Shown here: piece by piece, positions 5,502 through 59,152 of the stretch
Numbering within the stretch: position 1 is the stretch's first letter
Layout of the letters: each line of letters begins with the position of its first letter
Source: Candidatus Rifleibacteriota bacterium
GTDB taxonomy: Bacteria; Muiribacteriota; Ozemobacteria; Ozemobacterales; Ozemobacteraceae
Assembly (NCBI GenBank): GCA_012517355.1
Contig: JAAYVD010000050.1
Location: 23,350-87,349, forward strand
Direction of reading: 5' to 3'
DNA: 64,000 bases
Notes under the pieces: model-generated
The model's input: the letters and a program-made list of their open reading frames with translations, nothing else
Told to the model about the DNA's origin: nothing
Database searches by the model: none
Translations under genes and position numbers: made by a program

Positions 5502-8258
5502 ATGAGCGACCGGACACCCGGTCTGAACACCGGAAGGCTCCAGGGACCGGACCTTCCGGCCTGGGCGGTCACCGGCCTGTGGGCGGTGCTCGTCCTGGTG
5601 CCCTTCCTGCTGACCGCCTGGCTGGCCGAGGGACTTCAACGCCAGTACCGCGCGTCGGCCGTCAGGCAGACCGGACGCCGGCTGGAACGGGCCGCCCGCC
5701 GACTGTTCCACGAATCGCATCCCCGCTTCCTGGCCGCCCGCCGGCTCGACGCCCCCACCCCGGGTGAGCTGCCCCCGCACCCGGCCCCGCAAGATATCGG
5801 CGAGGTCCTCGCCCTCCTGCGGGACTTGTTACGCACCGGCCGGCTCCCCGACCAGATCTCCCTGCTCCGGCTGAAACACCGCCTGGGCTGGACCTTCGAT
5901 CTCTTTTCGCTGCGCGGGCGGCCGGGCATTGCCACGGAGATCCTCTGGGACGGCCGGCCCGGCTGGCTTGCCTGGAAGCCTGACGGCCCCGGGGGGAACG
6001 TCCGGACGGAGGTCGTCCTGCCCCCGCCCCGCGCCCTGTCCCTGCGCGACCGGTGCCAGGAAGCCGCCGCGCGGGCGGGGGTGGCCTGGGCGGTGACCGA
6101 CCGCGCCAGCCGCCGCTGGTGGCGGAGCCCCACGTTCGCCGACCCGGTCCCCGGACTCCTCCGGGCGATCGGACCACGCGACCGGGGAACCCTGGTCCAC
6201 GGCGGCCGGCTCGTCTGGTTCGACCGGGTCGGCCGGGAAGGCCGCTTCCTGGTCTCCACCCCGCTGCCCGTCCTGGCCCGGCCCGACCTGGCCGGGTGGC
6301 TGCCGCTGGCCGGAGGGGCGGCGCTGTTGCTGGTCTCGCTGGTCTTTCCGACGTTCTGCCGCCGTTTCCTGGCCTGGTCGCTCCGGTGGAAACTGCTCGC
6401 CCTGGCCGCCTACCTGGTGAGCGTCCCGCTGGCTCTCGCCCTGCTCCTCGGCCTGGGCTTCCTGAACGGCCGCCGGGAGACCCTGGAGGGCCAGCGGCTG
6501 ACCGCCTCCCTCAGCGACCTCCAGCTCTTCGATGCCGAGTTCCTCCGGTTCCTGCAAACCGTCGAAGTCCGGCTCCACCGCCTCCACGGGCAGGTGGCCC
6601 GGAGTGCGCCCGACCCCGCCGCCCTGGCCCGGCTGGCCGAGCCCATGTTCCGGGGATTGGTCACCGACCGCCTCCTGCTGCTCGCCTCCGACGGGCAGGT
6701 GCTACTCGACCGATGCTCCGACCACCGCACCGATTCCCTGCTGAACGAAGTGGGAACGGGGTTCCTCCGGCAGGAACTGGAGCGCCAGCGCCCCATCGGC
6801 CCGCCCCCGGAGACCTCCCAGCGGTTCCGGCTGTTCCACGAATCCATCCGCAACTCGACCTGGGGCAGCCATTACCACGTCCAGGGCGTTCTGCAGAAGT
6901 TCCTGTTCGGAACGAGGATCTTCTACACCTTCTGGCGGCTGTTCGCCAGGGGCCATCCCACGCTCGGCATCATGGCCGCCGACCTGTTCCACCAGGACAC
7001 CTCGCGGGCGTTCCTGGCCCGGGGCCGGGGCGTTGCCCGGACGGGCGCCTGCCGGCTGTTCACCTGGCACGGCGAGTCGGGCACCTGGTTCCCCACCCCG
7101 CCCCCCGGACGCCCGGACCTCGAGGCCCTGGTGGAAGCCTCGCGCCGGAGCGGCGAGCCCGAGACCGGCGAGGTGGAAACGCGGGCCGGCAGGACGCTGG
7201 CGTTGGCCGTCCCCGCCCACCATCTCCTCGGCTGCGTGCTGGTGGGGGTTCTGCCGGCCGGCGAGGAGGAGCGGGTCCTGGCCGAGCGGCGCGGGTTGCT
7301 GCTGACGGGAACAGGCCTCACGCTGGCCCTGGCCCTCGCCTGCTGGGTCCTGCTGACGCAGGGGTTGCTCCTCCCCGTGCGTGAGATCCTGGCGGGGATC
7401 GCCCGCCTGCGGCGCCTGGAAACGCACCCCCCCATCCCGGTCCTCGGCGACGACGAACTGGCCCGTCTGGCGAAGGGCATCAACCGGATGATGGACATCA
7501 CCGACGAACTCGACCTGGCCCGGGTGGTCCAGCGTGCCTTCGTGCCCGAGGCCCCGCCCCCCCTGCAACGATGGCGGATCGCGTTCTGGGAGAGCCGCCG
7601 GCTGGGGGTGGAAGGCGCCTTCTTCGACTGGTATCCCTGCCCCGACGGGCAGTGGGCCGTGTTGCTGGGCACCGCCACGGGCAGCGGGGTCCGGTCGGCC
7701 CTGATCATGGCGATGGTGAAGGCGCAGGCCTTCCTCCATTTCCGCGGGAACCGGCCCCCCGAGGGGTTCCTCGACCGGGTGCGCGAGGCCCTTCCCGACC
7801 TGGGCGTCACCCGGGCCTGCATGGCCCTTTCCCTGCTGGTCATCGACGAGGCCGGAGCCCGGCTGGCCTTCGTGGGGGCGGGAAGCCCCTTCGCCCTCGT
7901 CCGGTCGGCCCCGCCGGGCCCGGGCGCCCCCGTGGCCGTCGACTTCGTTGGTTCCCCTTCGCCGCCGCTGGGCGCCAGGGCTGCCGGTTCCTTCCCCGCC
8001 GTCTCCGTGCCCCTGGGGCCGGGCAAGGCCCTGCTCCTGTTCACCACCGGGGTGGCCCACGCCGCCGGCCCCGATGGCCAACCCCTGGGTTTCGAAGCCC
8101 TGCGCGAAGCCTTCGCGGCCGCCGACCCCCGGGCCGCCGACCCGCTGCGGCCCCTGCGGGAAAGGCTTCAGCAGCACGTCCAGGGCGGTGGGCGGGGAAA
8201 GGAGGCCTTCCTCCTGGTCTGGGATCCGGGCCCGCCGGCCGAGGGAGGATCCCGGTGA
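5502..8258 (+). CDS. Membrane sensor with a HAMP domain and a degenerate PP2C/SpoIIE-like domain (predicted pseudo-phosphatase), 918 aa.
   Basis: N-terminal TM (VTGLWAVLVLVPFLLTAWLA), a periplasmic-type region, a second TM block, and a HAMP-like segment (LLPVREILAGIARLRRLETHPPIPVLGDDELARLAKGINRMMDITDEL). The C-terminal SpoIIE-like fold is present, but the metal-binding motifs are replaced: LGTATGSG instead of GDVxGHG, and LFTTGVAHAAG instead of YTDG. Confidence 0.65.
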   Translation: MSDRTPGLNTGRLQGPDLPAWAVTGLWAVLVLVPFLLTAWLAEGLQRQYRASAVRQTGRRLERAARRLFHESHPRFLAARRLDAPTPGELPPHPAPQDIGEVLALLRDLLRTGRLPDQISLLRLKHRLGWTFDLFSLRGRPGIATEILWDGRPGWLAWKPDGPGGNVRTEVVLPPPRALSLRDRCQEAAARAGVAWAVTDRASRRWWRSPTFADPVPGLLRAIGPRDRGTLVHGGRLVWFDRVGREGRFLVSTPLPVLARPDLAGWLPLAGGAALLLVSLVFPTFCRRFLAWSLRWKLLALAAYLVSVPLALALLLGLGFLNGRRETLEGQRLTASLSDLQLFDAEFLRFLQTVEVRLHRLHGQVARSAPDPAALARLAEPMFRGLVTDRLLLLASDGQVLLDRCSDHRTDSLLNEVGTGFLRQELERQRPIGPPPETSQRFRLFHESIRNSTWGSHYHVQGVLQKFLFGTRIFYTFWRLFARGHPTLGIMAADLFHQDTSRAFLARGRGVARTGACRLFTWHGESGTWFPTPPPGRPDLEALVEASRRSGEPETGEVETRAGRTLALAVPAHHLLGCVLVGVLPAGEEERVLAERRGLLLTGTGLTLALALACWVLLTQGLLLPVREILAGIARLRRLETHPPIPVLGDDELARLAKGINRMMDITDELDLARVVQRAFVPEAPPPLQRWRIAFWESRRLGVEGAFFDWYPCPDGQWAVLLGTATGSGVRSALIMAMVKAQAFLHFRGNRPPEGFLDRVREALPDLGVTRACMALSLLVIDEAGARLAFVGAGSPFALVRSAPPGPGAPVAVDFVGSPSPPLGARAAGSFPAVSVPLGPGKALLLFTTGVAHAAGPDGQPLGFEALREAFAAADPRAADPLRPLRERLQQHVQGGGRGKEAFLLVWDPGPPAEGGSR

Positions 8259-11053
8259 TCGGCGACGCCAGGCGGTTCCTGATGTTCCTGCTGATGGTCC
8301 TGGTGCCGGCCGGCTTCGTGGTCGTCGGCATCACCCAGAACCAGGAGGAGCGGCGCGTCCGCCGGGCACGGCGCACCCTGGAGGCGACCAGGGACCGGCT
8401 GCTGCGGGTCGCCTTCCGCGCCAATCCCCTGGTCCAGATGAGCCGTGGGGCCTGGGATCTGGCCTCCCGCCTGCGGGCGGCCGGGTGGCGCCCCGTGGCC
8501 GACTCGCCTCTCGCCAACGGCTTCCCGGCCGGCTACCCGGTCCAGGTCGCGGGGTTCACCCCCGAAGGAACCCTGTGGCAACCCGACTGGGGGAAGGTGA
8601 CCTCCCGCTTCCTCTGGTCCCAGCTGTGGCAGGACATCTGCCGTCGGGAGATCCCCGCCCGCAACCTCGAGCGTTACCAGAGCCTGTTCGGCGGTTGGCT
8701 GACGGGGGACGACACCCGGGTCGAGGCAACCTTCCAGGAAGTGTCAACCCCGGCCGGGCCCGGGTTCTTCTCGTTCTTCCGGGGACCGGGAAAGGCCGGC
8801 GTCATGATGTTCTGCCCCGGTCTGCCCACTCCCCTGGCCCGCTGGCGGGAACTGCTCGTCCGCGAGCCGCCCCGGGGTCTCGATGTCTGGGTGCTCGACC
8901 CCCGGACCGGCCGCCTGGCGGGCACCGCCGCCCTCCCCCCGGCAGAACGGGAACTGCTGCGGCGGGCCCGGTGGGACCCCGCGGTGGAGAGCCTTTCCAG
9001 CCGCCATTGCCACGTCACGCGGCGGACCGAGGACAACCTCATCCTGCTGGGCCGCGCCCGCATCCGGCCCCCGGCCAGGCCGGTCAACCTCTGGCCGGCG
9101 CTGGTGTTGATCGGCCTTCTCGTCCCCGTCTGGTGGATCCTGGTGGGGGGGGATCCCCTGGCCCGGATGGGCATCCAGGCCCGGCTCCTCGTCCAGTTCG
9201 CGCTGGTGGCCGCCCTGCCGGTGGCGCTGGTCTGGCAGAACGGCTGGAACCACCTCGCCGAAACCGAACAGCGGCTGATCGAAGAGGCGCACGAGGGGAA
9301 CCTGGTCGGCCTGCGCGCGGCCGACGCCGCCCTCGGCCGGATGGAGGAACGGCAGGAGCGCTATTTCCGGGCCCTGACCGCGGCGGTCGGCCGGCGCCGG
9401 CGGTCGGCGGCGATTCCCGCCGCGGGGCGGCTCCTGGAGCGGGCCCGCCGCGCCAACCGGATCTCGGCCTACACCCTCATCGACCAGGCGGGGCGGGCCC
9501 GGGCCTCGTGGTGGAGCGACCGCGACATCGGCGACCTGGGGGAGATGTTCGCCGCGGAGATGGTGCGCCGCTACCGGGACGACACCTTCCTCCGGCCGGC
9601 CGACACCCTTGCCTGGACCTTCTTCCAGTTCCTGCAGAGCACCCTGATCGGGTTCGACACCATCAGCGACTCGCGGGGGATCGCGCGGCCCCTCGAGGCG
9701 GGGGCCTCGACGGTCTGGTGGTTCTGGGATCTCTTCCCCCGGGGGACCGCCTCGGACGCGGCTTTTCTCGGACTGGTCAAGAGCACCTGGGACCTGCAGG
9801 AGGAGGCGCTGCACGAGGGTCTCCCGGCCGGGGTGCAGGCCTTCGACCTGGGTTCGGGCCAATGGTTCCCGCGGCCCCCCGCCTTCGCCGCCCCCGATGC
9901 GCTGCTGGCCTCGGCCTTCCTTGGCCGGCACCACGTCCGCGCCCGCCGGACCGCCGGGGGAAGGTCGCTGCTGGTGTCGGCGTTTCCCAGCCCCGTCCAT
10001 CCCCGGGTCTGCTTCGTGACCGCCACCGACCTGGCACCGGTGGCCCGCCGCCTGGACGCCCTCCGCTGGTCCTTCCTGCTGGCGGCCGCCTTCACCCTGG
10101 TGCTGGCGGGGTTTCTGGCCAGGGTCATCTCCGGCACCCTGCTCGTGCCGCTGGGGCGGCTGGCCGAAGGGGTGACCGCCTTCGGACGGGGCCGGCGCGA
10201 CCTGGCCCTGCCCGACCTCGGCCCCGACGAGATCGGGGTCATGGGCGAGGCATTCAACGGGATGGTACGCGAAGCCCGCGAGGTCGATGCCGCGCGCCAG
10301 GTGCAGGAGAGCCTGATTCCCGCCGTTCCCCGCACGGTTCCGGGATACCAGACCGCCCTGCGCTACCTGCCGCTCGAAGACCTGGCAGGGGATTTCTGCG
10401 ACACCCTTCCCCGGCCCGACGGCTCGCTGTTCCTGGCCATCGGCGACGTCACCGGGCACGGCATCGGCTCGGCCCTGCAGACCGCCATGGCCAAGGCGGT
10501 CTGTGCCCAGGCCTGCCGCGAGGGCTGGGCGCTGCCCGCGACGTTCGACGCCCTCAATGCGGTCCTCCATCTGGGCCGGGCGAGCGGCAAGCTCATGACC
10601 TTCTGCGGGGGGATCCTCGATCCGGCCACCCATCTCTGGCAGTGGATCTCCGCCGGCCACAACTTCCCGGTGAGGCGTGGCCCGGCCGGCGAGGCGGACT
10701 TCCTGCGCCACGTGGGGGTGCCGCTGGGGGCGAAGGCGGCCCGCAAGTGGTCGGTGTCGGAGCGCCCCCTGGAACCGGGTACCCTGCTGGTGTTCTACAC
10801 CGATGGCCTCGTCGAGGCCACCGCCCCGGACGGCGAACCGTTCGGCTACGACCGGCTGCTGGAACAGGTCCGGCTCGCCCCGGCCGACCCGGGGGCGGCG
10901 CTGGACCACCTGCTACAGGCGTTCCGCGGGTTCGTGGGGGGGACCCCGCTCAACGACGACGTGACCCTGCTGGCGGTGGCGCGCAATCCCGCCCCTGATC
11001 CCGCCTCCGATCCCGACCCCGATCCCTTCCCCCGATCCCGACCATTCCCTTGA
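8255..11053 (+). CDS. Membrane sensor with a HAMP domain and an intact PP2C-type (SpoIIE/RsbU-like) serine phosphatase domain, about 930 aa.
   Basis: GTG at 8255 is 6 nt after GGGAGG and overlaps the stop of the upstream paralogue (alternative ATG at 8282). TM segments, HAMP (LLVPLGRLAEGVTAFGRGRRDLALPDLGPDEIGVMGEAFNGMVREAREVDAARQVQESLIP) and canonical PP2C motifs (LAIGDVTGHGIGSA and VFYTDGLVEA...NDDVTLLAV). The long upstream ORF extension 7571-8254 overlaps the previous gene and was rejected. Confidence 0.7.
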   Translation: MIGDARRFLMFLLMVLVPAGFVVVGITQNQEERRVRRARRTLEATRDRLLRVAFRANPLVQMSRGAWDLASRLRAAGWRPVADSPLANGFPAGYPVQVAGFTPEGTLWQPDWGKVTSRFLWSQLWQDICRREIPARNLERYQSLFGGWLTGDDTRVEATFQEVSTPAGPGFFSFFRGPGKAGVMMFCPGLPTPLARWRELLVREPPRGLDVWVLDPRTGRLAGTAALPPAERELLRRARWDPAVESLSSRHCHVTRRTEDNLILLGRARIRPPARPVNLWPALVLIGLLVPVWWILVGGDPLARMGIQARLLVQFALVAALPVALVWQNGWNHLAETEQRLIEEAHEGNLVGLRAADAALGRMEERQERYFRALTAAVGRRRRSAAIPAAGRLLERARRANRISAYTLIDQAGRARASWWSDRDIGDLGEMFAAEMVRRYRDDTFLRPADTLAWTFFQFLQSTLIGFDTISDSRGIARPLEAGASTVWWFWDLFPRGTASDAAFLGLVKSTWDLQEEALHEGLPAGVQAFDLGSGQWFPRPPAFAAPDALLASAFLGRHHVRARRTAGGRSLLVSAFPSPVHPRVCFVTATDLAPVARRLDALRWSFLLAAAFTLVLAGFLARVISGTLLVPLGRLAEGVTAFGRGRRDLALPDLGPDEIGVMGEAFNGMVREAREVDAARQVQESLIPAVPRTVPGYQTALRYLPLEDLAGDFCDTLPRPDGSLFLAIGDVTGHGIGSALQTAMAKAVCAQACREGWALPATFDALNAVLHLGRASGKLMTFCGGILDPATHLWQWISAGHNFPVRRGPAGEADFLRHVGVPLGAKAARKWSVSERPLEPGTLLVFYTDGLVEATAPDGEPFGYDRLLEQVRLAPADPGAALDHLLQAFRGFVGGTPLNDDVTLLAVARNPAPDPASDPDPDPFPRSRPFP

Positions 11054-11104
11054 CTTTTCCGGCGCCGCCCGGTAGCTTCAGGCATCTGCTTCGGAAGGTC
11101 AGCC

Positions 11105-12541
11105 ATGACATCGCAACCAGCCCCGGCCGCCACGGCGGCGAGCCCCCGCACCTACTACTCCACCACGTCCATCTGCCCCCATTGCGGGACCCTCCTGCCC
11201 GGCAAGGTGGTCGGCCTGGACGACGGGGTCTTCGTGGTCCGCGACTGCCCGACCCACGGCCATCTCGAAGGGCTCGCCTGCTCCGATCGGGCCTGGTTCG
11301 ACCGGCTGCCCGCCTTCGACGTGGCCCCTTCCCCGCCCACCGGGCCGCGCCGACCCGTGGCCCACGGTTGTCCCGCCGACTGCGGCCTGTGCGCCGCCCA
11401 CCGCCAGCGGGCCGGCACTGCGGCCGTCGAGATTTCCAACGAGTGCGACCAGGCCTGCCCCACCTGCCTGGCCGACAACCGCAGCACCTTCCGCCTGACC
11501 CCTGCCGAGGTGGCGAAGATCGCCGACGACCTGTTGGCCAGCCAGGGCGCGGTCGACGCCTTCACGCTGTCGGGCGGCGAACCCACGATCCATCCGCAAC
11601 TGTTCGAGATCCTCGAGGTGCTCGACCGTCCGGCGATCGCGCGCATCGTGATCAACAGCAACGGTCGCCGCATCGCCACCGACGACGCCTTCCTCGACCG
11701 GTTGGCCCGACACCCCAAGGTCTACGTCTCCCTGCACTACGACGGCCCGGCCGCCCCGCGCCTGCGCGGCGTCGAGTTCGCCCGCCAGCAACTGGCCCTC
11801 GACCGCCTGATCCGCTGGAATATCAAGATGGTCCCCCTCCTCCTGGCCGCCCGCGACGTCAACGAGGCCGACCTCGGCCCGGTGACCCTCGACCTGCTCA
11901 CCCGCAGCCCGGCCGTCAAGTCGGTGATGTTGTCGATGATGGCCTACTGCGGCAGTCGCGGCTCACAGGTGCCCATCGACCCGCGGCGCCGCCTGACCAT
12001 TCCCGACGCCCTGGCGGCGATGGAAAGCGGCACCGGCGGGGTGCTGCGCCGGGCCGACTTCATCCCGCTGCCGATGCCCAACCCCCTCTGCGCCGCGATC
12101 GGCTACTTCCTCGTCCAGGACCGCGAGGTCGTCGGCCTGCTGCCCCTGGCCGACCAGGACCGGGTGATCGAGCACGTCGCCAACGCCCACTTCGTCGACC
12201 CCGGCCCGGAACTGGAAGCCCTGCTGCGGCTGGGAATCGACACCGTCTATGCGGATCCCGGCCGGTTCCGCGATCCCGAGCGCGTCCGCTCCAGCTTCAA
12301 GGCGCTCCTGGCGGAACTGTTCCCCGCCGGCCGCCGCCTGGAGGCGGCCGAACGCCGGGTGATCGCGGAAAACCGCATCAAGACCGTCTACCTGATGCAG
12401 TTCATGGACGCCTGGACCTTCGATTCGGTGCGGATGAGCAAGTGCAGCTGCCAGCACTTCCTGCCCGACGGCAAGGTGGTGCCGAGCTGCGGCTACTACA
12501 CGTTCCACCGGGGAAAGGACCCGCGGTTCGCCGACCGGTAG
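11105..12541 (+). CDS. Radical SAM protein (MJ0619/Tes-like architecture) with an N-terminal Cys4 zinc-ribbon/rubredoxin-like motif and a C-terminal Cys cluster, 478 aa.
   Basis: N-terminal CPHCG...(17 aa)...CPTHGH. Radical SAM core ISNECDQACPTC (CxxxCxxC) with TLSGGEPT. C-terminal KCSCQHF...PSCGYY. No SPASM domain. Confidence 0.75.
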   Translation: MTSQPAPAATAASPRTYYSTTSICPHCGTLLPGKVVGLDDGVFVVRDCPTHGHLEGLACSDRAWFDRLPAFDVAPSPPTGPRRPVAHGCPADCGLCAAHRQRAGTAAVEISNECDQACPTCLADNRSTFRLTPAEVAKIADDLLASQGAVDAFTLSGGEPTIHPQLFEILEVLDRPAIARIVINSNGRRIATDDAFLDRLARHPKVYVSLHYDGPAAPRLRGVEFARQQLALDRLIRWNIKMVPLLLAARDVNEADLGPVTLDLLTRSPAVKSVMLSMMAYCGSRGSQVPIDPRRRLTIPDALAAMESGTGGVLRRADFIPLPMPNPLCAAIGYFLVQDREVVGLLPLADQDRVIEHVANAHFVDPGPELEALLRLGIDTVYADPGRFRDPERVRSSFKALLAELFPAGRRLEAAERRVIAENRIKTVYLMQFMDAWTFDSVRMSKCSCQHFLPDGKVVPSCGYYTFHRGKDPRFADR

Positions 12542-12616: not shown

Positions 12617-14263
12617 CTACCAGGAGCCGGCCAGCTTGTAGTAGGCGAGAGGTTCCTTGACGTTCTTCACGGTTGCATGGAAGGGGCCTTCGAACGGCCA
12701 TTTTCCGGGTTCGGCCTTCTGCACGAGGTCGCGAATCGGCGCGAAGACCAGGATCTCGTTGGCCTTGGCCACGCCCTGCAGACGGGCGGTGTTGTTCATG
12801 CCGCTACTGAAGGCGGTCAGGTCCTGGTTGGGGCCGATCATGCCGACGTCGGCCGAACAGTAGTTGAGACCGATGGCGACCCCGAAATCCGGGTAATGGG
12901 GCGACTGCTGGATGTCGGCGTTCTCGGGGGCGGCCAAAAACTCGCGGGTGAAGGCCCGGATGGCCAGGGCGGCCTGCAGGGTCCTCAGGGCGACTTCCTC
13001 GGGCAGCCGGTCGTAGAACGGGGGCCCGAACAGCACGATCACGCAGTCGCCGACCAGCTTGTCGAGCGTGCCGCCGAGGGGGAAGAAGCGGTCGGTGCAG
13101 CCGGTCGACCACCCGTCGATGAACCGGGCAATACGCGCGGGATCCTTCAGGACCTGCTCGCTCAGCTTGGTGAAACCGCTGACGTCGGCGAAGATGATGC
13201 CGATGTCGGCCTTGCGCGGGGACAGGTATTTCGCCTTGTAGTTGGGCTCGCGCAGCATGCGCCGGATGACGTCGGCCGGGAAGAACTGCCGCAGCATGTT
13301 CTTCTCGCGGTTGAAATCGACCAGCCGCTGCCGCAGCGCCTCGGCAAACACCTGCACCATCTCGCGACTGGCGATCGACAGGCCGGTCTGGCTGGGCGGC
13401 CGGATCATGATCTTGCCGACCAGGGTCTCCTCGACCAACCCGTCGAGCAGGATGGTCTCGCTCATCGAGGCCGCGGGAAAGACCTTCTCGAGGTCGCGGT
13501 TCCCGGGCACGACGATCTCCTTCCCCGCCTTGATCAGGGCTTCCAGCTCGGGCAACGGGTGGTCGACCGAGTCGTATTCCTTCGTGAACCCACGGTAGAC
13601 GTAGTATTGGACCATCTTCCCGCCGCCCAGGTCCTCGTCGAGGTAGAGCAGGACCAGTTCCTCCATCGGCACCACGTCGGCCAGGATGGTGATGGCCGTA
13701 TCGATGGCCTCGGAAAGGCTGCGGGCCTTCAGGCACCGCTGGATCTCCATGATGTTCATGTGCTTGTAGCGGCTTTCCTGGATGGAATAGAAGTAGTTGT
13801 CCAGTTCCTCCGCCACCAGGTTCATCTTCTCGAACACCCCGTCGCCCGCCTCGACGGCCCCGGAAGGGAAGGCCAGTCCGAAAGCGCCGATCGTGTCGCC
13901 AGCCATGTCGAGCGGCATGACGAACCATTCCCGGCCGCCCACCACCCGTCGCTCGGTCCGGCCGACGGCGAGCAGGTCGGGGGCTTCCGCGTTCATCTGC
14001 TCCTCGGTCACCGCGCGGCCGAAGAAGGTGGAGCGCAGATCCTCGTTCTGGGTCACCAGGAAGATGGCGGCCGGCTGCAACCGGTTCTCGAGGAAATCGA
14101 AGACGTCGGCCAGGGTGGAAGCCAGATCCTTGTGGCACTTGATGCACCCCTCGATGATCGCGTCGGCCTGGTCGCCGATGGCCAGAAGCCCCTCGAGATG
14201 AGCCACCCGTCGCCGGAGTTCCTCGTTCCCCATTTCTGCCTGCCCCGCCCGTTGGTCTGCCAT
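12617..14263 (-). CDS. Class III adenylate/guanylate cyclase with N-terminal GAF-like sensory domains, 548 aa.
   Basis: Cyclase core IGIIFADVSGFTKL...LDKLVGDCVIVLFGPP...GLNYCSADVGMIGP...FSSGMNNTARLQG, preceded by about 330 aa of GAF-like sequence. Confidence 0.75.
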   Translation of the reverse strand: MADQRAGQAEMGNEELRRRVAHLEGLLAIGDQADAIIEGCIKCHKDLASTLADVFDFLENRLQPAAIFLVTQNEDLRSTFFGRAVTEEQMNAEAPDLLAVGRTERRVVGGREWFVMPLDMAGDTIGAFGLAFPSGAVEAGDGVFEKMNLVAEELDNYFYSIQESRYKHMNIMEIQRCLKARSLSEAIDTAITILADVVPMEELVLLYLDEDLGGGKMVQYYVYRGFTKEYDSVDHPLPELEALIKAGKEIVVPGNRDLEKVFPAASMSETILLDGLVEETLVGKIMIRPPSQTGLSIASREMVQVFAEALRQRLVDFNREKNMLRQFFPADVIRRMLREPNYKAKYLSPRKADIGIIFADVSGFTKLSEQVLKDPARIARFIDGWSTGCTDRFFPLGGTLDKLVGDCVIVLFGPPFYDRLPEEVALRTLQAALAIRAFTREFLAAPENADIQQSPHYPDFGVAIGLNYCSADVGMIGPNQDLTAFSSGMNNTARLQGVAKANEILVFAPIRDLVQKAEPGKWPFEGPFHATVKNVKEPLAYYKLAGSW

Positions 14264-14699
14264 GGTTCCGTCCTCCCAGATTTTCCGCCACTATACCAGA
14301 TGGGCACCCCGGTCTCAAACCGCCCTCGCTGCTGGCACCCTCGCCCCATCCCGGACCCGCGACCGGCCGGCCGGCCGAACGCGCCCCCAGGGCCGGTCCG
14401 TCCCGCCCCCGGGCGCCCGGGTCTCCCGACCCGCTCCACGCGGCAACCGGGCCGCCGTCCACGGCGTCGACGCCGTCAGAGGGACGACTTCCGGCGGGAC
14501 CGCGGGCACCACCACCCACGCCCACCCTGTGCGAGGTTCCGCACATGCGGGGGGGGTGGCGAGGCATCCGTTTCGTTGGCACCCCTGCGGACCCGCCTGC
14601 CATGACGGTTTCCTCGCCCCGCCCGGACTGGCATGCCGCCTGCTTTGGAAAGGGAGGAACGAGCGTTCTCCCCACCAGTTCCGCACACAGGAGGCAGGT

Positions 14700-15821
14700 A
14701 TGTCGGCAGGCGTCGCCAGGTTGGCCACCCTTCGTGGCTCTCACCCCGTCTCGTTGCCCCACCCCGCTTCGCCTCTTCGCCCCACCGGGCTCCTCCGCGC
14801 CGCCCCTTCCCCGGCCGACCTGCACCTGTTCACCTGGCACCTCGAGACCCTGCTCGCTGCCGGGATTCCCCTCCCGCACGGGCTCGCCGTGGTCGGGGAG
14901 GGATTCGAGGACCCCGCCATGCGGCGGCTCGTCCGGGAGATCCGGGCGGCCGTGGCCGCTGGCCTGCCTTTGTCGGTCGCCCTCGCCCGGCATCCCGCCT
15001 GCTTTCCCGAAACCTTCCGCGCGCTGGTGCAGGCCGGCGAAGCCACCGGCCTCCTGGGCGAGATGCTGTCCCTGGCCGCCCGTTTCCAGGAAGGGTCCTG
15101 CCGGCTCCGGTCGTTCTTCGACGCCTGGCTGATCGCCCGCCCGGGATGGTGGGCGGCCCTCTGGGGCACCTTTTCCCTCGCGGGCCTGGCCATGGTGGAC
15201 GGCCTGACGCCGGAGTGGATGGAAGAGGCCACAACCACGCCCTGGACGGTGTCGGCGGTGACCGCCCTGGTGATGCTGCCGACCGTCCTGATGGTGGTCT
15301 ATCTCGTGTCGCAGTCCGTAGCCGCCGTCCTGTGGCGGGAAGGGGAAGCCGGCGGGCCCCTGCTCGATTGGATCGCGGTCCGCATCCCGCTGGTGGGGGA
15401 ATGGTACGGGAATCATCTCCTCGGCCGGGCCCTGCTCGTGATGCACCACCTCCTCGCCGCCGGGGTGCCCATGACCCAGGCCCTGGAAGCGGCCGCCGCC
15501 AGCACCCCGCATTGCCAGTGGCGCAGCGCCCTCCGCGGGGCCGCGGTCCGGGTCCGGGGCGGGGAACCCCTCGCCCTGGCGCTGGACGTGACCGCCCCCT
15601 TGCCGGAACAGGCCCGCCTGCTGATCGCCTCCGGGGAGGAGAACGGCGACCTGGCGCCGCAACTGGCTTGGCTGGGCGGTTTCTACGAACAGGAGGTGAC
15701 GCGCCGGACCGCCCTGCTGGCCACGGCCATCCTGCCCCTCAACCGGTTCCTCCACCTGCTCGTCCTGGGGAGCGCGCTGCTGGCCGTGCTCCAGCCCTTC
15801 CTGTCCATCCCAATGTTCTGA
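14700..15821 (+). CDS. Type II secretion / type IV pilus platform protein F (GspF/PilC) family, two T2SSF repeats, 373 aa. No other pilus genes nearby.
   Basis: ATG at 14700 is 5 nt after AGGAGG. Two T2SSF-like repeats (LLAAGIPLPHGLAVVGEG...GEATGLLGEML and LLAAGVPMTQALEAAA...LIASGEENGDLAPQLAWLGGFYEQEV) with TM segments between them. No pilB/pilT/pilin genes are adjacent. Confidence 0.65.
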   Translation: MSAGVARLATLRGSHPVSLPHPASPLRPTGLLRAAPSPADLHLFTWHLETLLAAGIPLPHGLAVVGEGFEDPAMRRLVREIRAAVAAGLPLSVALARHPACFPETFRALVQAGEATGLLGEMLSLAARFQEGSCRLRSFFDAWLIARPGWWAALWGTFSLAGLAMVDGLTPEWMEEATTTPWTVSAVTALVMLPTVLMVVYLVSQSVAAVLWREGEAGGPLLDWIAVRIPLVGEWYGNHLLGRALLVMHHLLAAGVPMTQALEAAAASTPHCQWRSALRGAAVRVRGGEPLALALDVTAPLPEQARLLIASGEENGDLAPQLAWLGGFYEQEVTRRTALLATAILPLNRFLHLLVLGSALLAVLQPFLSIPMF

Positions 15822-21115: not shown

Positions 21116-24100
21116 CTACTTCGTCTTCAGGTGGTAACTGCCGTCCCAGTCCGCGGGCGGCGGCTCCACGCGGAAGGAGGCGATGCGCTCGAGATAGGTG
21201 CGGGAAGGACCATCATCGGGCAGGAGGGCCAGCACCTGCTGCAGAGCCGCTTCGGCGGCATCCCAGTTCCGGGTCAGATACCCGGAGATCCCGTCGCTGT
21301 ACAACGGCAGGACGCGCTCCCACAGGGCGTCGTCCTCGCCTTGTTCCCCGATCAGATGGAAAACCCGGATCGGTTTCTTCTTCCCCTTCACGGCCAAAAA
21401 GTCGAGGAACCGGGTGCGCAGCCCGCTGCCGGCCAGCAGCTCGTTGGTGCTCTCGGACACCATCATCAGCGTATCGTAGGCCTTGTTGGCCCCCTCCAGG
21501 CGGGAGGCCAGGTTGACCCCGTCTCCCAGGCAGGTGAAGTTCATCTGCGCCGAACTGCCGTAAAAACCCACCATGCATTCGGCCGTGTTGATGCCCGCCC
21601 GCATGGTCACGTCGGGCAGACCCCTCGCCTTCCATCCCCGCCGCAACTCCGCCAGCCGCTTCTGCATCGCGATGGCGCATCGCGCCGCCCGGACGGCGTG
21701 GTCCTTCTGCGGCGCGGGATGGTTCCAGAAACACATCACCGCGTCGCCGATGTACTTGTCGAGAGTGCCGTCGAAGGCGAAGACGAGGTTCGTCATCTCC
21801 CCCAGGTACTCGTTCATCAACGCCCCGAGCTGCTCCGGGGAGAGCATCTCCGAGATCGTGGTGAAGCCCGCCAGGTCGGTGAACATGACGGTGAGCGTGG
21901 TCTTCGCCCCGCCCGGCCTGACCGCCGACGGGTTGGCCACGATCTCCTCGACCATCTTCGCCGACACGAACCGGCCGAACGAACTGCGCACCTGCCGTTC
22001 GCGCCGCCGGGACTCGGTGTAGGCGTGGAACCCCCGCCCCACGCCGAACGAGCCCAGCACCAGCACCGGCAGTGCCACCGGCAGCAGCCATCCGGCCAGG
22101 AAAAGGGCCAGCGAGACCGAGGTCCAGGCCGTGGTCAACAGCAGGGTCCAGGCCCCGCCCGTCATCGCGCCGCGCCGCGCGATGCGCCGGTCGAGCAGGA
22201 ACAGGAACGGCAGCAGGGCCAGAAGGTTCCAGACCGGCCAGGCCACCGGCGAGGCGTCGGGGTGCAGCACGGTCGGCCGCAGGAACTCTCGCCGCAGGAG
22301 GGCCGAGCACAAGTGGGCGTGCAGATTGACCCCGGCCATCTTCTTGAAATCGCGGTCGAGGAAGTTCACCGGGGTCACCTGGAAATCCTGGTCCTCACCG
22401 AGATGCGACCCGAAGAAGACCGTGCGCCCCGCGAACCGGCCGGCCAGCCGGTTGCCCGTGCCCCGCTGCCCGGCGGCATCACAGAACACACGCCAGGTCC
22501 CCGGCGGGAAGGCCGCCCCGCCCTCGCCCCCGGCCACCGCCCACCGCCGGGCGTCCGCCGGCGAGGGGCCTCCGTCGATGGCCCGGCCGGCCGATGACCG
22601 GAAGACCACCCGGCCCGCCACCGGGAATCCGGCGGGCAGGCGGAAGGCGACCGGAACCGGATCGAGGTCGGCCGGGGTCGGGGAAAGGGGTCCGGTCAGG
22701 CGCACCGTTTCGCCGGTCCACAGGTCGGGTTCGACCGGGGCGGCCGCCGATGGCCCCGCCGGGTCGGCGGTGGCCGGCGCGGAGGCGGGTTCCGGCCGGC
22801 CCAGGGTGACGCGCGCCCCCAGGGACGACGGCAGCCCCGACACGGTCACCCCGTCTTTCCCCGGGGCCACCCGGACCGTGACGAGGAACCGGGCGGACCA
22901 CGGGGTCCCCGTCTCGGTGAAGGCCACCGTGCGCCCGGCGGCGGGGCGGCCGTCTGCCGCCCGCACCCGGCCCCGGTCGTCGAGGGACAAGGCGGGGCCA
23001 TCGTCGAGCGCGTTCACCTCGAACCCGGCCGGGACACCCATGGCTGATTCGCCGGCCGCGGGTACACCGGCCGCGGGGACACCCGCCGCGGGGGCGTCGG
23101 CCGCCACCGCAGGCTTGGACCCGGGTTCGGACGGCCCGCCTTCCGGCAGTCGGTCCCGGACCAGGAGCCCACCGGTGGATGCCGGCGGCCCCAGGGGCTG
23201 CCCCGAAAGGCCGAGCCGCTCGATCCAGACCGGATCCCCCGTCACCACGAGGATCTGCGGCACGAGGGCGGCCGGCACGCTGGCCACCAGGGTCACGCTG
23301 CCCGCCAGGAACCGCCCGGGGGCGAGCGTGACGGCCGGCTCACCGGCGGCCACCCCGACGGTGGTGGCAAGGGTCTGCGACCGGGAGGCGACGGGATCGT
23401 CGTCGATCCAGGTCAGTTCCACCGAGTAGGAACCAGGGGGCAGGCCGCCGAGGCGGAAAACCCCGTCGGGCCCGGTCGTGGCACTGGCCCAGAACCCGCC
23501 CCCGGTCTGCCAGGCCCAGGCCTCCACTCCCGCCAGCGGCTTCCCCGCCTGGTCGAGGGCCCGACCGGCGATCGTACCCGACCCCGGGTCGGCCAGGTCG
23601 AAGGCGAGGTCGACCGGCTCGGAGGCGGCGAGCCCCGGCGCCACGGTCAGGGCATTCTGCCCGCCTTGCGAGAGGGTTCCCAGCAACAGCGCGAGAGAGA
23701 CGACCCGGATGCCGTCGCCCTTCAGCGGCCACGACTGCCGGCTGAACGGAACTCGCAGGCAGGGCGCGAGCGGGGAACCCATCCAGGGCAGACCGCCGGG
23801 CGGCAGATCCAGCCAGGTGACCGGCGCCAGCCCCGTGAGCGGCATCTGGTCGGCCACCTCTTCCCAGATCACGGCGGTCCGGCCGGTCGCACCAGTCTCC
23901 GTCGGATCGGCCCGGGAAGGGGCCTCATCAAGGCCCTCCCGGTCAGCCGGGCCGGTAGCCGACCGGCCGGGCTCCGAGGCGACCGTCCCACCGCGGTCCA
24001 GGCCCACCGGGGGATCCCCGCCCTGCCCACGGACCGCCGGCAGGGCGGAACCGGAGCCGGCCCCCGCTCCGCCGGCACCGTGCGCTGGCTCCGCCTGCGC

Positions 24101-25138
24101 AGGAGCGGGGTTCCCTGCCCCGAGGTCATCACCGGGACCGGCCACGACAGGCCGCCCTGCCCACCCCCCGGCCGCCCAGCGGGCCAGCCAGCGTAGTTCC
24201 CAGCGGCGCAGCATCCGGTCGAGCCCGGCGTGGGTGGTCCCGTGGAAAGGCCGGGGACCAGCCCCCACAGCCGCCTGCAGCCACGCGGCCGCCCGCTCCC
24301 GCAGACGGGGGCCGGGCTCGGGAACCGGCGGCAGGGCGGCCGCCCCCCGCCCGGCCTCGGCGTCGGCCAGTTGCCGGCGGATCCAGGCGGCCACGCCCAG
24401 GGTGGGCAGGTAGTCCTCCCCGGCTTCGGTCAGGAAGGCCAGCGGGATGTAGCGAACCACCCCGTCCAGATCGAGGAAGAGATTGGTCAGGCCGAAGTCC
24501 GGGGCAGCCGCTGCCACCGGGCCGTACAAGGCCAGAGGCGGCGGGGGCCGTTCCCGGAAGGTCCCGCCCAGGGACAGCTGCTCGACCCCGCCGATCGCCT
24601 GCCGCCGCAGGAACTTGCGGCCGAGCAGCGGCCCGGGGAACGCCCGCAATGCCGCCACGAATGGCCGGTCGGTCTCCTCCTGTTGGGCCTCGTCGAACAG
24701 GAAGTCGAAGGCCGCCACCCGCACCCCGGCCGAGGCGAGGATCCCGAGGGCCTGGGCAAAATCGGCCCGGTGCGGAGGCCGGCCGAACACCTGGGGAAAG
24801 GTATCGTCCTTGGCCACGACCACCACGGGGTGGTCGGGAGGCGACCGCAGGGGAAGCACGAAGAACAGGTCGAACACCTTCCCGTCCAGCCAGGCGAGAA
24901 GGTGCCGGGGCAGAGGGACGAGCGCGACCAGGCACACCAGGACCGGCACCAACAGCAGCCAGCTCCCGGAGACGCCGGGGCCGGTCCCCGACAGGGCGTC
25001 GGGGGGCGAACCGGCCGGGGGGGGAACCGGGGCGCCGCCACCGCTTTCCCGCGCCACCCCCCCGCGGCCCGTCACGGCCGTCGCCGGGGGAGCAGCGCCC
25101 GCCGTGCCTGCCCCAGGTGGCTCACCGTGACCGTTCAC
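21116..25138 (-). CDS. CHASE2-domain membrane sensor fused to a class III adenylate/guanylate cyclase, with a long periplasmic middle region containing carboxypeptidase-regulatory-like beta-sandwich repeats, about 1340 aa.
   Basis: CHASE2-like N-terminus (LLLVPVLVCLVALV...HPVVVVAKDDTF...VAAFDFLFDE). Middle region with GVFRLGGLPPGSYSVELTWIDDD-type repeats. C-terminal cyclase TLTVMFTDLAGFTTISE...LDKYIGDAVMCFWN...GINTAECMVGFYGS...GDGVNLASRLEG. The exact start is uncertain. Confidence 0.75.
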   Translation of the reverse strand: MNGHGEPPGAGTAGAAPPATAVTGRGGVARESGGGAPVPPPAGSPPDALSGTGPGVSGSWLLLVPVLVCLVALVPLPRHLLAWLDGKVFDLFFVLPLRSPPDHPVVVVAKDDTFPQVFGRPPHRADFAQALGILASAGVRVAAFDFLFDEAQQEETDRPFVAALRAFPGPLLGRKFLRRQAIGGVEQLSLGGTFRERPPPPLALYGPVAAAAPDFGLTNLFLDLDGVVRYIPLAFLTEAGEDYLPTLGVAAWIRRQLADAEAGRGAAALPPVPEPGPRLRERAAAWLQAAVGAGPRPFHGTTHAGLDRMLRRWELRWLARWAAGGWAGRPVVAGPGDDLGAGNPAPAQAEPAHGAGGAGAGSGSALPAVRGQGGDPPVGLDRGGTVASEPGRSATGPADREGLDEAPSRADPTETGATGRTAVIWEEVADQMPLTGLAPVTWLDLPPGGLPWMGSPLAPCLRVPFSRQSWPLKGDGIRVVSLALLLGTLSQGGQNALTVAPGLAASEPVDLAFDLADPGSGTIAGRALDQAGKPLAGVEAWAWQTGGGFWASATTGPDGVFRLGGLPPGSYSVELTWIDDDPVASRSQTLATTVGVAAGEPAVTLAPGRFLAGSVTLVASVPAALVPQILVVTGDPVWIERLGLSGQPLGPPASTGGLLVRDRLPEGGPSEPGSKPAVAADAPAAGVPAAGVPAAGESAMGVPAGFEVNALDDGPALSLDDRGRVRAADGRPAAGRTVAFTETGTPWSARFLVTVRVAPGKDGVTVSGLPSSLGARVTLGRPEPASAPATADPAGPSAAAPVEPDLWTGETVRLTGPLSPTPADLDPVPVAFRLPAGFPVAGRVVFRSSAGRAIDGGPSPADARRWAVAGGEGGAAFPPGTWRVFCDAAGQRGTGNRLAGRFAGRTVFFGSHLGEDQDFQVTPVNFLDRDFKKMAGVNLHAHLCSALLRREFLRPTVLHPDASPVAWPVWNLLALLPFLFLLDRRIARRGAMTGGAWTLLLTTAWTSVSLALFLAGWLLPVALPVLVLGSFGVGRGFHAYTESRRRERQVRSSFGRFVSAKMVEEIVANPSAVRPGGAKTTLTVMFTDLAGFTTISEMLSPEQLGALMNEYLGEMTNLVFAFDGTLDKYIGDAVMCFWNHPAPQKDHAVRAARCAIAMQKRLAELRRGWKARGLPDVTMRAGINTAECMVGFYGSSAQMNFTCLGDGVNLASRLEGANKAYDTLMMVSESTNELLAGSGLRTRFLDFLAVKGKKKPIRVFHLIGEQGEDDALWERVLPLYSDGISGYLTRNWDAAEAALQQVLALLPDDGPSRTYLERIASFRVEPPPADWDGSYHLKTK

Positions 25139-25300
25139 CGCGACGACTCACCGCAACCGTTCACTGCGTCGACTCAACGCAACCGCTCATGGCGACGACT
25201 CACCGCGATCGTTCACCGCGACGACTCACGTGACCATTCACCGCGATCGTTCTCCGCAACGACTCAACGCAACCGTTCACCGCGACCGCTCACCGGAGCC
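25137..25300. repeat. Tandem repeat array, about 26-bp unit x6.5 (consensus GYRACCGTTCACCGCGACGACTCACC), between the FecR-like gene and the CHASE2-cyclase gene.
   Basis: Read directly: successive units GTGACCGTTCACCGCGACGACTCACC / GCAACCGTTCACTGCGTCGACTCAAC / GCAACCGCTCATGGCGACGACTCACC / GCGATCGTTCACCGCGACGACTCAC / GTGACCATTCACCGCGATCGTTCTCC / GCAACGACTCAACGCAACCGTTCACC. Confidence 0.7.
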
Positions 25301-29107: not shown

Positions 29108-29563
29108 TGTCAGGCCCTCCTTTCCAGAATCGTTCACCGGAATCGATCACCCCTGTTGACCGCCACATCGCGAGAAAGGTTCCCGGAAAGTTCACGGCCT
29201 GCCGGAAACCCCCGGAAACCCCCGCCGCGTCTTTTCTGGAGACTTCAGCATTTCGACGGAAACCTCGAAAGCTGCAGGGGAAAGGGAGAAAGGGGGGAAA
29301 TGGCGAAGGGAGTCGCCAGCACGATCTGCGCAATCAGCATCGATGGGTGGATGAAGAACGTGGTTTCCCAGGCCCGAAAAGGGTTCCGGGGGCTCTGCCA
29401 GCGGTGAAATGAAGGGCAAAGCCCCTTCGGCAGGCATGGTCGGGGATCGACCTCTTTTTTCCCTTCCACCCCTGTGATAGAGTGTCCTCCGTCGGTCTCC
29501 GGCAGGGCCACCCCCACCGGAACCAGCGGTCACCAACCCGCATTCCACCTGGGAGGATCACCC

Positions 29564-35235: not shown

Positions 35236-36201
35236 CTACCCCTTGGCTGTGGCGGAGGCGGAAGCGGGAGCGTTCTTCAGCGTGCCCTCGACGGAGCGAA
35301 CCGCCAGGTCGAGCAGCCGCTTGATCTCCGAGGCGCTGGTCTGGTAGCCGCCGTGCTTGTTGGCGAACTGCCGGATGACCAGGATGTTGACGTCCTTGTC
35401 GGTCTTGCGTTCGACGACGTCGCGATCGCCGGCCGCTGGCTGGAAGATCGGCAGCGACGGTCGGGTGATGACCACGAAGTAGAGATACGGCCCGCCGCGG
35501 TTGATGGCCACCTGGGCCTGCACGCCCAGCAGTTCCTTGGGGGCATCGGGTGGTTTGATCATCAGCTTGAGATCGGTCGGCACCTCTCCCTTGTCGGTCT
35601 TGGCCAGTTCGAGCTGGTATTCCCGGCTCCATTTCCCCAGGCCCAATGCGGGAAAACCGGCCAGCAGGGCTTCGAACACGGGCAGTTTGAACTCGACCAG
35701 GTGCGGTTTCCAGGTGTTCGGCGCACAGATCCAGAAATACCAGATGCCCAAAAAGACCAGGTCGAGGAAGGCCGTTCCCAGCATCTCTTCTGCGAAGGAA
35801 TTGCCCAGGCCGTCGGACAGGACCCCGACCGTGCCCATCCCCACCACGAAGACCAGCAGGCTGATCCCCAGGTTGAACAGGCCCCACAGGCAGCCGGAGC
35901 CGAGGTTGTCGATGACCTCAATCTTCTTCTTGATCCGGCCGACCTCGGTGGCCGTGACCTGCACCCAGCGCTTGCCCTCCTCGGCTTTCAGCTTCGGAGA
36001 GAGGTTCAGCCGGGGATCGGCTCCCCATCCCTGCGCGTAGCCGTACCAGAACCCCCCGGCGATGACGGCGAGGCCGAGCCAGGCCGACCACTGCATCTGC
36101 ACGAACAGGCCCCCCATCACCACGAGGGTGGGGATCACCACCTCGCGCAGGATGTCGCTTTCAGCGGCGGGGGCAACGGGAGCCGTCTTCGCAGCTTCCA
36201 T
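35236..36201 (-). CDS. Hypothetical polytopic membrane protein, 321 aa. Last gene of the rSAM/SPASM operon.
   Basis: ATG at 36201 is 6 nt after AAGGAGGG. Several TM helices (IPTLVVMGGLFV, LGLAVIAGGFWYGY, LFNLGISLLVFVVGMGTVGV, FLDLVFLGIWYFWI). Overlaps the 3' end of the rSAM gene by 41 nt, suggesting translational coupling. No recognisable family. Confidence 0.5.
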   Translation of the reverse strand: MEAAKTAPVAPAAESDILREVVIPTLVVMGGLFVQMQWSAWLGLAVIAGGFWYGYAQGWGADPRLNLSPKLKAEEGKRWVQVTATEVGRIKKKIEVIDNLGSGCLWGLFNLGISLLVFVVGMGTVGVLSDGLGNSFAEEMLGTAFLDLVFLGIWYFWICAPNTWKPHLVEFKLPVFEALLAGFPALGLGKWSREYQLELAKTDKGEVPTDLKLMIKPPDAPKELLGVQAQVAINRGGPYLYFVVITRPSLPIFQPAAGDRDVVERKTDKDVNILVIRQFANKHGGYQTSASEIKRLLDLAVRSVEGTLKNAPASASATAKG

Positions 36202-41841: not shown

Positions 41842-41922
41842 CCCTGATGCCGCCATGAGAGGAAAACACGTGGGGTAGCTGACACCCGGAGCCTGCCTGC
41901 GATCCACTGGTTTCTGTGGTTC

Positions 41923-59138: not shown

Positions 59139-59152
59139 GTCGTCTCTCCTCC

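Follow-up and report, generated by a model that had tools for sequence, protein, structure and literature searches.

A Tes-like radical SAM enzyme of a Candidatus Rifleibacteriota bacterium belongs to a distinct bacterial clade with a probable role in lipid-chain tailoring

Our analysis concerns a 64,000-nucleotide stretch of contig JAAYVD010000050.1 from a Candidatus Rifleibacteriota bacterium (this whole stretch is called the window) and, within it, one gene whose product is an enzyme of the radical S-adenosylmethionine (SAM) type. Judged from its sequence and predicted fold, the protein is a member of the superfamily of Tes, the tetraether synthase from archaea, also named GDGT-MAS (MJ0619). 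It is not a Tes orthologue and not a TrsS; sequence comparison places it in a distinct bacterial clade, designated clade C. Most relatives of the gene are embedded in a lipid-type cluster, which in its full form has two further Tes-like paralogues (A and B), a membrane protein, and a system of ketosynthase with chain-length factor (KS/CLF) plus acyl carrier protein (ACP), and the clade C enzyme probably tailors a lipid chain by radical chemistry. A note made from the DNA letters alone (the earlier note) had described the enzyme as stand-alone, which is true in the window but not for most of its relatives.

Family, fold, and predicted metal sites

The open reading frame (ORF) of the radical SAM gene is real and complete (Table 1). 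It contains no in-frame UGA, and its G+C content at third codon positions (GC3 = 0.91) is typical for genes in the window, whose overall G+C is about 61 to 75%. A chance ORF is excluded by a phmmer search against the PDB (E = 8.2e-36). Furthermore, 425 of the candidates scored are homologues at E ≤ 1e-5, and one protein from a metagenome-assembled genome (MAG) of Candidatus Riflebacteria is 100% identical to the window protein.

Pfam recognized just two domains, PF23545 Zn_ribbon_HMPTM (44.7 bits, cut-off 27) and PF04055 Radical_SAM (51.2 bits, cut-off 29.5), in agreement with the earlier note, which had seen no SPASM domain. The top two NCBIfam models were TrsS (200.3 bits, 4e-59) and then Tes (187.6 bits, 3e-55); the third family reached 33 bits (2e-8). 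The best PDB sequence match was GDGT-MAS (7TOL, 8e-36), which aligned in two stretches, residues 19 to 339 and 428 to 471, with residues 340 to 427 left unaligned by sequence. An AlphaFold2 model, built on 113 orthologues, had a mean predicted local distance difference test score (pLDDT) of 92.6. In Foldseek, 7TOM and 7TOL were the sole full-length matches (for 7TOM, template modeling [TM] score 0.79, E 3.5e-32, about 500 columns), with an identity to GDGT-MAS of about 20% in the structural alignment. Other radical SAM structures overlapped in the core only (TM ≤ 0.41). With the ribbon, the N-terminal cluster motif, the radical SAM motif, the Cys residues of the C-terminal cluster, and the full-length fold all found, sequence and model together assign the protein to the Tes/GDGT-MAS superfamily. 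The resemblance that the earlier note had drawn is thus borne out at the superfamily level; both checks that it had suggested, profile HMM and Foldseek, returned members of this superfamily on top and not an unrelated radical SAM subfamily. The enzyme is soluble or peripheral and is built like archaeal GDGT-MAS/Tes.

Four metal sites are predicted: a rubredoxin-like Fe site, an N-terminal [4Fe-4S] cluster, the SAM-cleaving [4Fe-4S] cluster, and a C-terminal [4Fe-4S] cluster. The metal ligands described for MJ0619 are C9X2C12X20C33X2H36, C73/C77/C80 plus a His for [4Fe-4S]N, and CX3CX2C for the radical SAM cluster (PMC9433317), and each published ligand of GDGT-MAS has one counterpart in the window protein. 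The three motifs reported before, a CxxC...CxxH ribbon, a CxxxCxxC core, and a C-terminal KCxCxH...CGYY, are all present (C24-H51, C114-C121, and K446-Y465). In the ribbon (C24-P-H-C27 ... C48-P-T-H51), the spacing is the same as in MJ0619. A ribbon it is, as had been claimed, but not of the Cys4 type, the ligands being Cys3His. In a comparison of alignment columns, the Cys3His pattern is kept in clade C and most of the superfamily, and in a few paralogue A sequences the His is replaced by Cys, Thr, or Ala. The earlier list of domains was correct in what it named but not complete; it omitted both the motif C89x3C93x2C96..H99 and C329, which is found superfamily-wide. C89, C93, C96, and H99 correspond to C73/C77/C80 and the His of MJ0619 and are invariant in the 113 orthologues as well as in all clades compared.

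The C-terminal cluster region (residues 431 to 465) contains M431, Q432-F-M434-D435, K446-C447-S448-C449-Q450-H451, and C462-G-Y-Y465. In the column comparison, Tes, TrsS, paralogues A and B, and clade C all keep a Cys at C329, C447, and C462, and therefore, these residues are likely the three Cys ligands of the C-terminal cluster. C449 and H451 of the KCSCQH motif are confined to clade C among the clades compared. M431 aligns with Met439 of MJ0619 and H451 with Tyr459. Met439 is a labile ligand of the C-terminal cluster of Tes, and the M439A variant is still active (PMC9433317); in clade C, this column holds M, I, Y, or L.

Clade C and the gene clusters of its members

The window protein is not an orthologue of Tes, because it scores below the cut-off of the Tes model (NF045702; 187.6 bits versus 450), falls into a different clade, and carries a His in place of Tyr459 of Tes. 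With the same model, a true Tes representative (P0215) reached 610 bits. Tyr459 is reported as strictly conserved in 1,000 archaeal homologues (PMC9433317). At the equivalent position, every clade C member compared carries a His; most Tes representatives and paralogue B have Tyr, and TrsS and paralogue A usually Val. The same holds for TrsS: the model NF045646 gave 200.3 bits versus a cut-off of 490, with true TrsS representatives at 545 to 595 bits. In an approximate neighbor-joining tree, in which Tes and TrsS were labeled by their NCBIfam scores (610 and at least 545 bits), clade C is placed with the bacterial paralogues A and B, at a distance from both, and true TrsS stands beside Tes (MJ0619/P0215), not with clade C. 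The window protein shares with Tes the four-domain architecture, the ligand pattern, and the identical CX2CX20CX2H spacing; at the position of Met439 it has a Met, in a column that varies within clade C. However, it has KCSCQH where MJ0619 has RCCIHY, and the genomic partners of clade C resemble fatty acid synthase/polyketide synthase (FAS/PKS) proteins and not the isoprenoid lipid genes of archaea. The best-scoring curated model, TrsS, stands for a family of radical SAM (seleno)proteins and shares superfamily and ligands with the window protein; unlike the latter, it has mostly Val at position 451, and Met is found at 431 in TrsS.

A search of 1.84 billion cluster representatives found a single 50%-identity representative for clade C, at 58% identity, and the next full-length relatives had at most 36%; therefore, the window protein belongs to a tight family. 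As defined here, clade C members have at least 45 to 50% identity to other members, the KCSCQH motif, and Q432-F-M-D, all of which are found in the window protein. Identity to 112 clade C members is 40 to 63% and at least 48% for all except the four most distant; across phyla, it is 50 to 63%. The clade is found in Riflebacteria, Leptospiraceae, Acidobacteria, Polyangia, Planctomycetes, Verrucomicrobia, Nitrospirales, Spirochaetota, and Bacteroidota.

Orthologue loci were taken from the encoding contigs, from the genome locus L001, and from metagenomes scanned with a C-terminal alignment specific to the clade, and were annotated by tblastn and all-against-all BLAST. A scan of genome contigs with the full-length alignment followed superfamily-wide patterns: 79 of its 80 loci belonged to other clades, and L001 was the sole orthologue. 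Closer inspection of the loci revealed one conserved gene order in L001, L086, L100, L107, L114, and L117. It starts with KS/CLF, a ketoreductase (KR), a flavoenzyme-like protein of the nitroreductase family, a long ACP (about 130 to 140 amino acids), a KR/short-chain dehydrogenase (SDR), and a FabA-like dehydratase. These are followed by the Tes-like paralogue A (about 500 amino acids), a 198-amino-acid hexapeptide-repeat protein, and paralogue B (about 465 to 480 amino acids), then by a polytopic membrane protein of about 310 amino acids, and clade C comes last. The cluster is seen in Verrucomicrobia-like lineages and in others. It spans positions 1 to 9398 in L001 and 137 to 10489 in L117; in L117, a convergent glmS was confirmed after the cluster. 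L092 has the full cluster as a variant with a PEMT-like gene, and PEMT-like proteins and, in L091, a CMAS-family methyltransferase are further lipid-type neighbors of clade C orthologues. Partial clusters are present in L081, L089 (Polyangia), L101, L108, L109, L112, and the P0089 contig.

Many of the cluster-bearing metagenome loci derive from one Verrucomicrobia-like lineage, and therefore, raw locus counts overstate their independence. After dereplication at 80% identity, and counting lineages with usable flanks, 13 of about 20 lineages have, within 10 kb of the clade C gene, at least one of three kinds of partner: a Tes-like paralogue, the membrane protein, or components of FAS/PKS. In the literature searched, no description of the three-paralogue cluster was found, and a KS/CLF-ACP cluster with three Tes-like paralogues is apparently undescribed.

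The membrane protein has a conserved C-x5-C-x2-C-x7-8-C loop (Cys4 membrane protein) and almost always adjoins the clade C gene. Pfam and NCBIfam assigned no family to it or to the small neighbors, and a profile search with it matched solely MAG proteins. In L086, L089, L104, L110, and L010, a rhodanese domain with its catalytic Cys retained is fused to its N terminus, and at least about a third of the homologues in databases carry such a fusion.

Some loci hold further genes beside the orthologue. In another Riflebacteria MAG (L081), a NifS-like cysteine desulfurase-rhodanese fusion (positions 9291 to 10811) lies directly 3' of the orthologue, and an aryl-polyene-like KS-CLF/KR/ACP/FabA (ApeI-like) set comes next on the opposite strand. 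In L091 (6528 to 13428), five radical SAM genes, the orthologue among them, stand in a row: two are Tes-like, one is of the SPASM type, and two are others. A CMAS-family (cyclopropane/mycolic acid synthase-like) methyltransferase also belongs to this group. L087 has a Tes-like paralogue and a LipA-like gene close to the orthologue. An alpha/beta-hydrolase-like protein of about 340 amino acids adjoins clade C in three unrelated lineages, L087 (6899 to 7900), L089 (7447 to 8496), and L121 (393 to 1319), each time on the minus strand.

Proposed role and alternative explanations

The last position of clade C in the KS/CLF-ACP cluster, after the membrane protein and two Tes-like enzymes, suggests a final, membrane-proximal tailoring of a lipid. 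We consider it probable that the clade C enzyme catalyzes radical tailoring of a lipid chain, presumably as the final membrane-proximal step in the making of a dedicated lipid of acyl or polyketide origin. Following the published mechanism of Tes (PMC9433317; review PMC13459092), the enzyme would cleave SAM reductively, and the 5'-deoxyadenosyl radical would pull a hydrogen off a long hydrophobic chain at an unactivated carbon. The carbon radical would be captured by the C-terminal cluster via a C-S intermediate, and a new bond would then form, C-C or possibly C-S. For the window gene, the partners may be encoded elsewhere in the genome, or the enzyme may act on ordinary membrane lipids.

Several points weigh against lipid tailoring. 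The role is drawn from gene adjacency, an indirect kind of support, and the substrate could be ACP-bound, a free acid, or a phospholipid. Neither clade C nor the paralogue clades A and B have any characterized member, and the tree behind the placement of the clade is approximate. The single Verrucomicrobia-like lineage accounts for many of the cluster-bearing loci, and the gene is solitary in seven lineages (the window, L082, L084, L088, L095, L121, and L131), among them the closest relative (L131, 62% identity). In the window itself, KS, ACP, paralogues A and B, and the membrane protein were all absent from the 64 kb in motif scans and tblastn searches.

An alternative, which we regard as unlikely, is a true bacterial counterpart of Tes that joins the tails of two ordinary lipids (e.g., iso-fatty-acyl or ether) to give membrane-spanning lipids, e.g., iso-diabolic acid or precursors of glycerol dialkyl glycerol tetraethers of the branched type (brGDGTs). 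Such a role has already been proposed for bacterial Tes homologues (PMC8941075), the four-domain fold and the metal ligands are the same as in GDGT-MAS, and the pocket of Tes accepts ester-linked phospholipids (PMC13274423). Furthermore, the gene is solitary in the window and in several lineages, which would fit an enzyme working on bulk lipids. However, a score of 188 bits against the Tes cut-off of 450, the position outside the Tes clade, and the exchange of Tyr459 for His speak against a Tes counterpart, and the clade is usually one of three paralogues in a dedicated KS/CLF-ACP cluster, unlike a bulk-lipid enzyme. No bacterial Tes homologue has been validated; the confirmed bacterial enzyme for membrane-spanning lipids is Mss. 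Mss of Thermotoga and Thermoanaerobacter is, like clade C, a radical SAM enzyme of fatty-acyl tails (for clade C, by the role proposed here) with a reportedly Tes-like catalytic architecture, but the literature calls it remotely related to Tes, and we compared it with clade C by description only.

The bacterial homologues of Tes have been surveyed before. Zeng et al. (2022) catalogued 456 of them and proposed brGDGT synthesis (PMC8941075), and later surveys still call their function unproven. These homologues and those from Black Sea MAGs come from the same broad set as ours (Acidobacteria, Planctomycetes, and other phyla). Unlike in those surveys, where they form one group, several clades are seen here, with at least three of these, A, B, and C, sharing one KS/CLF-ACP cluster.

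It is also imaginable, although quite improbable, that the carbon-cluster-sulfide is the end point and not an intermediate, so that a thiolated or sulfur-bridged lipid is made and a rhodanese or cysteine desulfurase resupplies the sulfur. Tes does make a substrate C-S(cluster) intermediate (PMC9433317), and clade C alone has an additional Cys449 and His451 beside its C-terminal cluster. The rhodanese fusions of the neighboring membrane protein, the desulfurase-rhodanese fusion beside the orthologue in L081, and the LipA-like gene in L087 also speak for sulfur insertion. Against this, most copies of the membrane protein lack a rhodanese, the catalytic Cys is lost in L114, the sulfur-transfer genes could serve Fe-S cluster repair, and no rhodanese or desulfurase is near the radical SAM gene in the window. 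We know of no sulfur-containing lipids from these phyla, which is a further point against sulfur insertion.

A maturase of peptides or proteins of the RiPP type (peptides made on the ribosome and modified posttranslationally), or a cofactor maturase tied to the neighboring signaling proteins, is highly improbable. Two SpoIIE sensors do lie on the same strand, with a 51-nt gap before the radical SAM gene, but neither this neighborhood nor a conserved small ORF is found next to any orthologue, and the weak, sub-threshold matches to SPASM/twitch maturases stem from the shared radical SAM core only. Pfam found neither a SPASM domain nor a RiPP recognition element (RRE), maturase structures overlap in the core only (TM ≤ 0.37), and the flanking gaps of 51 and 75 nt are too small for a precursor ORF, which the earlier note had not seen either. 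With both the SPASM domain and a precursor ORF absent, we rejected a RiPP maturase. Least probable of all, and hardly to be considered, is a pterin methylase of radical SAM class D (7,8-dihydro-6-hydroxymethylpterin dimethyltransferase), the name given to many orthologues in JGI/KEGG style and echoed in the Pfam name Zn_ribbon_HMPTM: we rejected this label as a legacy of the first function assigned to MJ0619, an assignment that the crystallographers of that enzyme could not corroborate and that has given way to tetraether synthase (PMC9433317), and pterin or methanopterin genes are absent nearby in the window and in any related locus.

Going beyond lipid tailoring by clade C itself, we put forward tentatively a possible pathway for the whole cluster, to which we give less credence than to the role of the single enzyme. 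Clade C, paralogues A and B, and the Cys4 membrane protein may constitute a widespread, undescribed pathway in which three successive Tes-type enzymes remodel a fatty-acyl or polyene chain made by the KS/CLF-ACP system, the product being a bacterial lipid of a new class, cross-linked, cyclized, or sulfur-bridged. This pathway might also underlie unexplained "ladderane-type" clusters of Verrucomicrobia and soil phyla, and the window gene would then be a detached member. "Ladderane" calls of biosynthetic gene clusters (antiSMASH) in Verrucomicrobia have been reported as unexplained. According to a 2026 review, radical SAM modification of ketoacyl (nonisoprenoid) lipids has so far been proposed for ladderanes and jawsamycin only. 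The type II fatty acid synthesis (FASII)-radical SAM clusters ("ladderane-type") of anammox bacteria and Desulfotalea have a similar content: KS plus a noncanonical KS, ACP, KR, dehydratase, two adjacent radical SAM genes, and a membrane protein. However, anammox Cluster I has a cobalamin-dependent radical SAM enzyme that is not Tes-like, and kuste3342/3343 and DP1853/1855 were compared by description only. A link to these clusters is kept as a lead only.

Neighborhood in the window and significance of the clade

TABLE 1 Features of the radical SAM gene, its neighbors in the window, and the Cys4 membrane protein at orthologue loci
Feature	Position	Strand	Basis and remarks
ORF of radical SAM enzyme, 478 amino acids, ATG to stop	11105..12541	+	ORF list; Tes/GDGT-MAS-superfamily radical SAM enzyme, bacterial clade C
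GGAAGG Shine-Dalgarno-like hexamer (putative)	11093..11098	+	Read directly from sequence; 6 nt 5' of ATG
Rubredoxin-like zinc-ribbon domain, residues 17-57	11153..11275	+	C24x2C27x20C48x2H51; PF23545, E 9.8e-12; predicted mononuclear Fe site
N-terminal auxiliary [4Fe-4S] motif, H87-G-C89-P-A-D-C93-G-L-C96-A-A-H99	11363..11401	+	Predicted by homology
Radical SAM cluster motif C114x3C118x2C121 (C114-D-Q-A-C118-P-T-C121)	11444..11467	+	Motif scan, PF04055; invariant in clade
GGEP SAM-binding motif, residues 157-160	11573..11584	+	Motif scan; invariant in clade
Cys329, first Cys of predicted C-terminal auxiliary cluster	12089..12091	+	Invariant in 113 orthologues
C-terminal cluster region, residues 431-465	12395..12499	+	HMMER alignment to 7TOL; cross-clade column comparison
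Upstream neighbor 1, membrane HAMP + SpoIIE (PP2C) sensor phosphatase, 918 amino acids	5502..8258	+	Pfam
Upstream neighbor 2, second HAMP + SpoIIE sensor phosphatase	8255..11053 (start approximate)	+	Pfam; ends 51 nt before radical SAM gene
Convergent downstream neighbor, class III nucleotidyl-cyclase-like protein, 548 amino acids	12617..14263	-	Pfam PF00211
Cys4 membrane protein, L092	9075-10004
Cys4 membrane protein, L090	9002-9934
Cys4 membrane protein, L086	6022-7272
Cys4 membrane protein, L089	8493-9827	-
Cys4 membrane protein, L001	7136-7936

As the earlier note had stated, the radical SAM gene lies directly 3' of two membrane phosphatase sensors, which Pfam identified by HAMP and SpoIIE domains. 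The placement is not conserved in relatives: SpoIIE sensors beside the orthologue were absent at every other locus examined and are unique to the window. A conserved functional link to the two sensors, which no orthologue locus has, was therefore rejected. In the 51-nt gap between the second sensor and the radical SAM gene, no promoter-like or terminator-like site was found, and co-transcription with the upstream sensor is possible. The two sensor genes are tandem paralogues whose frames abut or overlap, each with an N-terminal region of about 600 amino acids without a Pfam match. A stretch of 13 kb contains two genes for class III nucleotidyl cyclases (12617 to 14263 and 21116 to 25147, both on the minus strand); one encodes a CHASE2-cyclase of 1,343 amino acids, and the other may have a GAF-like N terminus (judged by eye). 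With these cyclases and the SpoIIE sensors, the region is rich in signaling genes.

The search for partners in the window by motif scans and tblastn gave just an unrelated radical SAM/SPASM gene near 36.2 to 37.5 kb (36164 to 37500, minus strand), which has a C-terminal SPASM domain (CNLACRFC ... CRTCGHFDLCEGACP) and is part of a long ORF with an approximate start. A lone T2SSF (GspF/PilC-like) platform protein of type II secretion or type IV pili is encoded at 14262 to 15821 (plus strand); it carries a Pro/Arg-rich N-terminal extension of about 190 amino acids, and no other secretion or pilus genes are nearby. Giant ORFs are found at 29408 to 34963 (plus strand, 1,851 amino acids, seven Big_5 Ig-like repeats and CopC), at 41848 to 52584 (plus strand, 3,578 amino acids, faint cadherin, fn3, and MG2 matches only), and at 53499 to 59231 (minus strand, 1,910 amino acids, no Pfam match). 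The GC skew is strongly negative at 30 to 34 kb and 42 to 52 kb of the window.

For the window alone, the outcome is a supported family assignment and a corrected annotation: the gene encodes neither a pterin methylase nor Tes. Bacterial Tes homologues are candidates for the synthesis of branched GDGTs, the lipids of widely used palaeoclimate proxies, but they are not one family; at least three clades occur together, accompanied by a novel membrane protein and by the genes of a KS/CLF-ACP system. Hence, in genome surveys, a "Tes hit" alone is no evidence for tetraether synthesis. The main interest lies in the co-clustered paralogue families of the clade rather than in the solitary copy of the window. 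The three-paralogue cluster is a defined gene set open to cloning, and if the proposed pathway is true, a widespread three-enzyme system would extend the list of ketoacyl-lipid modifications by radical SAM enzymes beyond ladderanes and jawsamycin.

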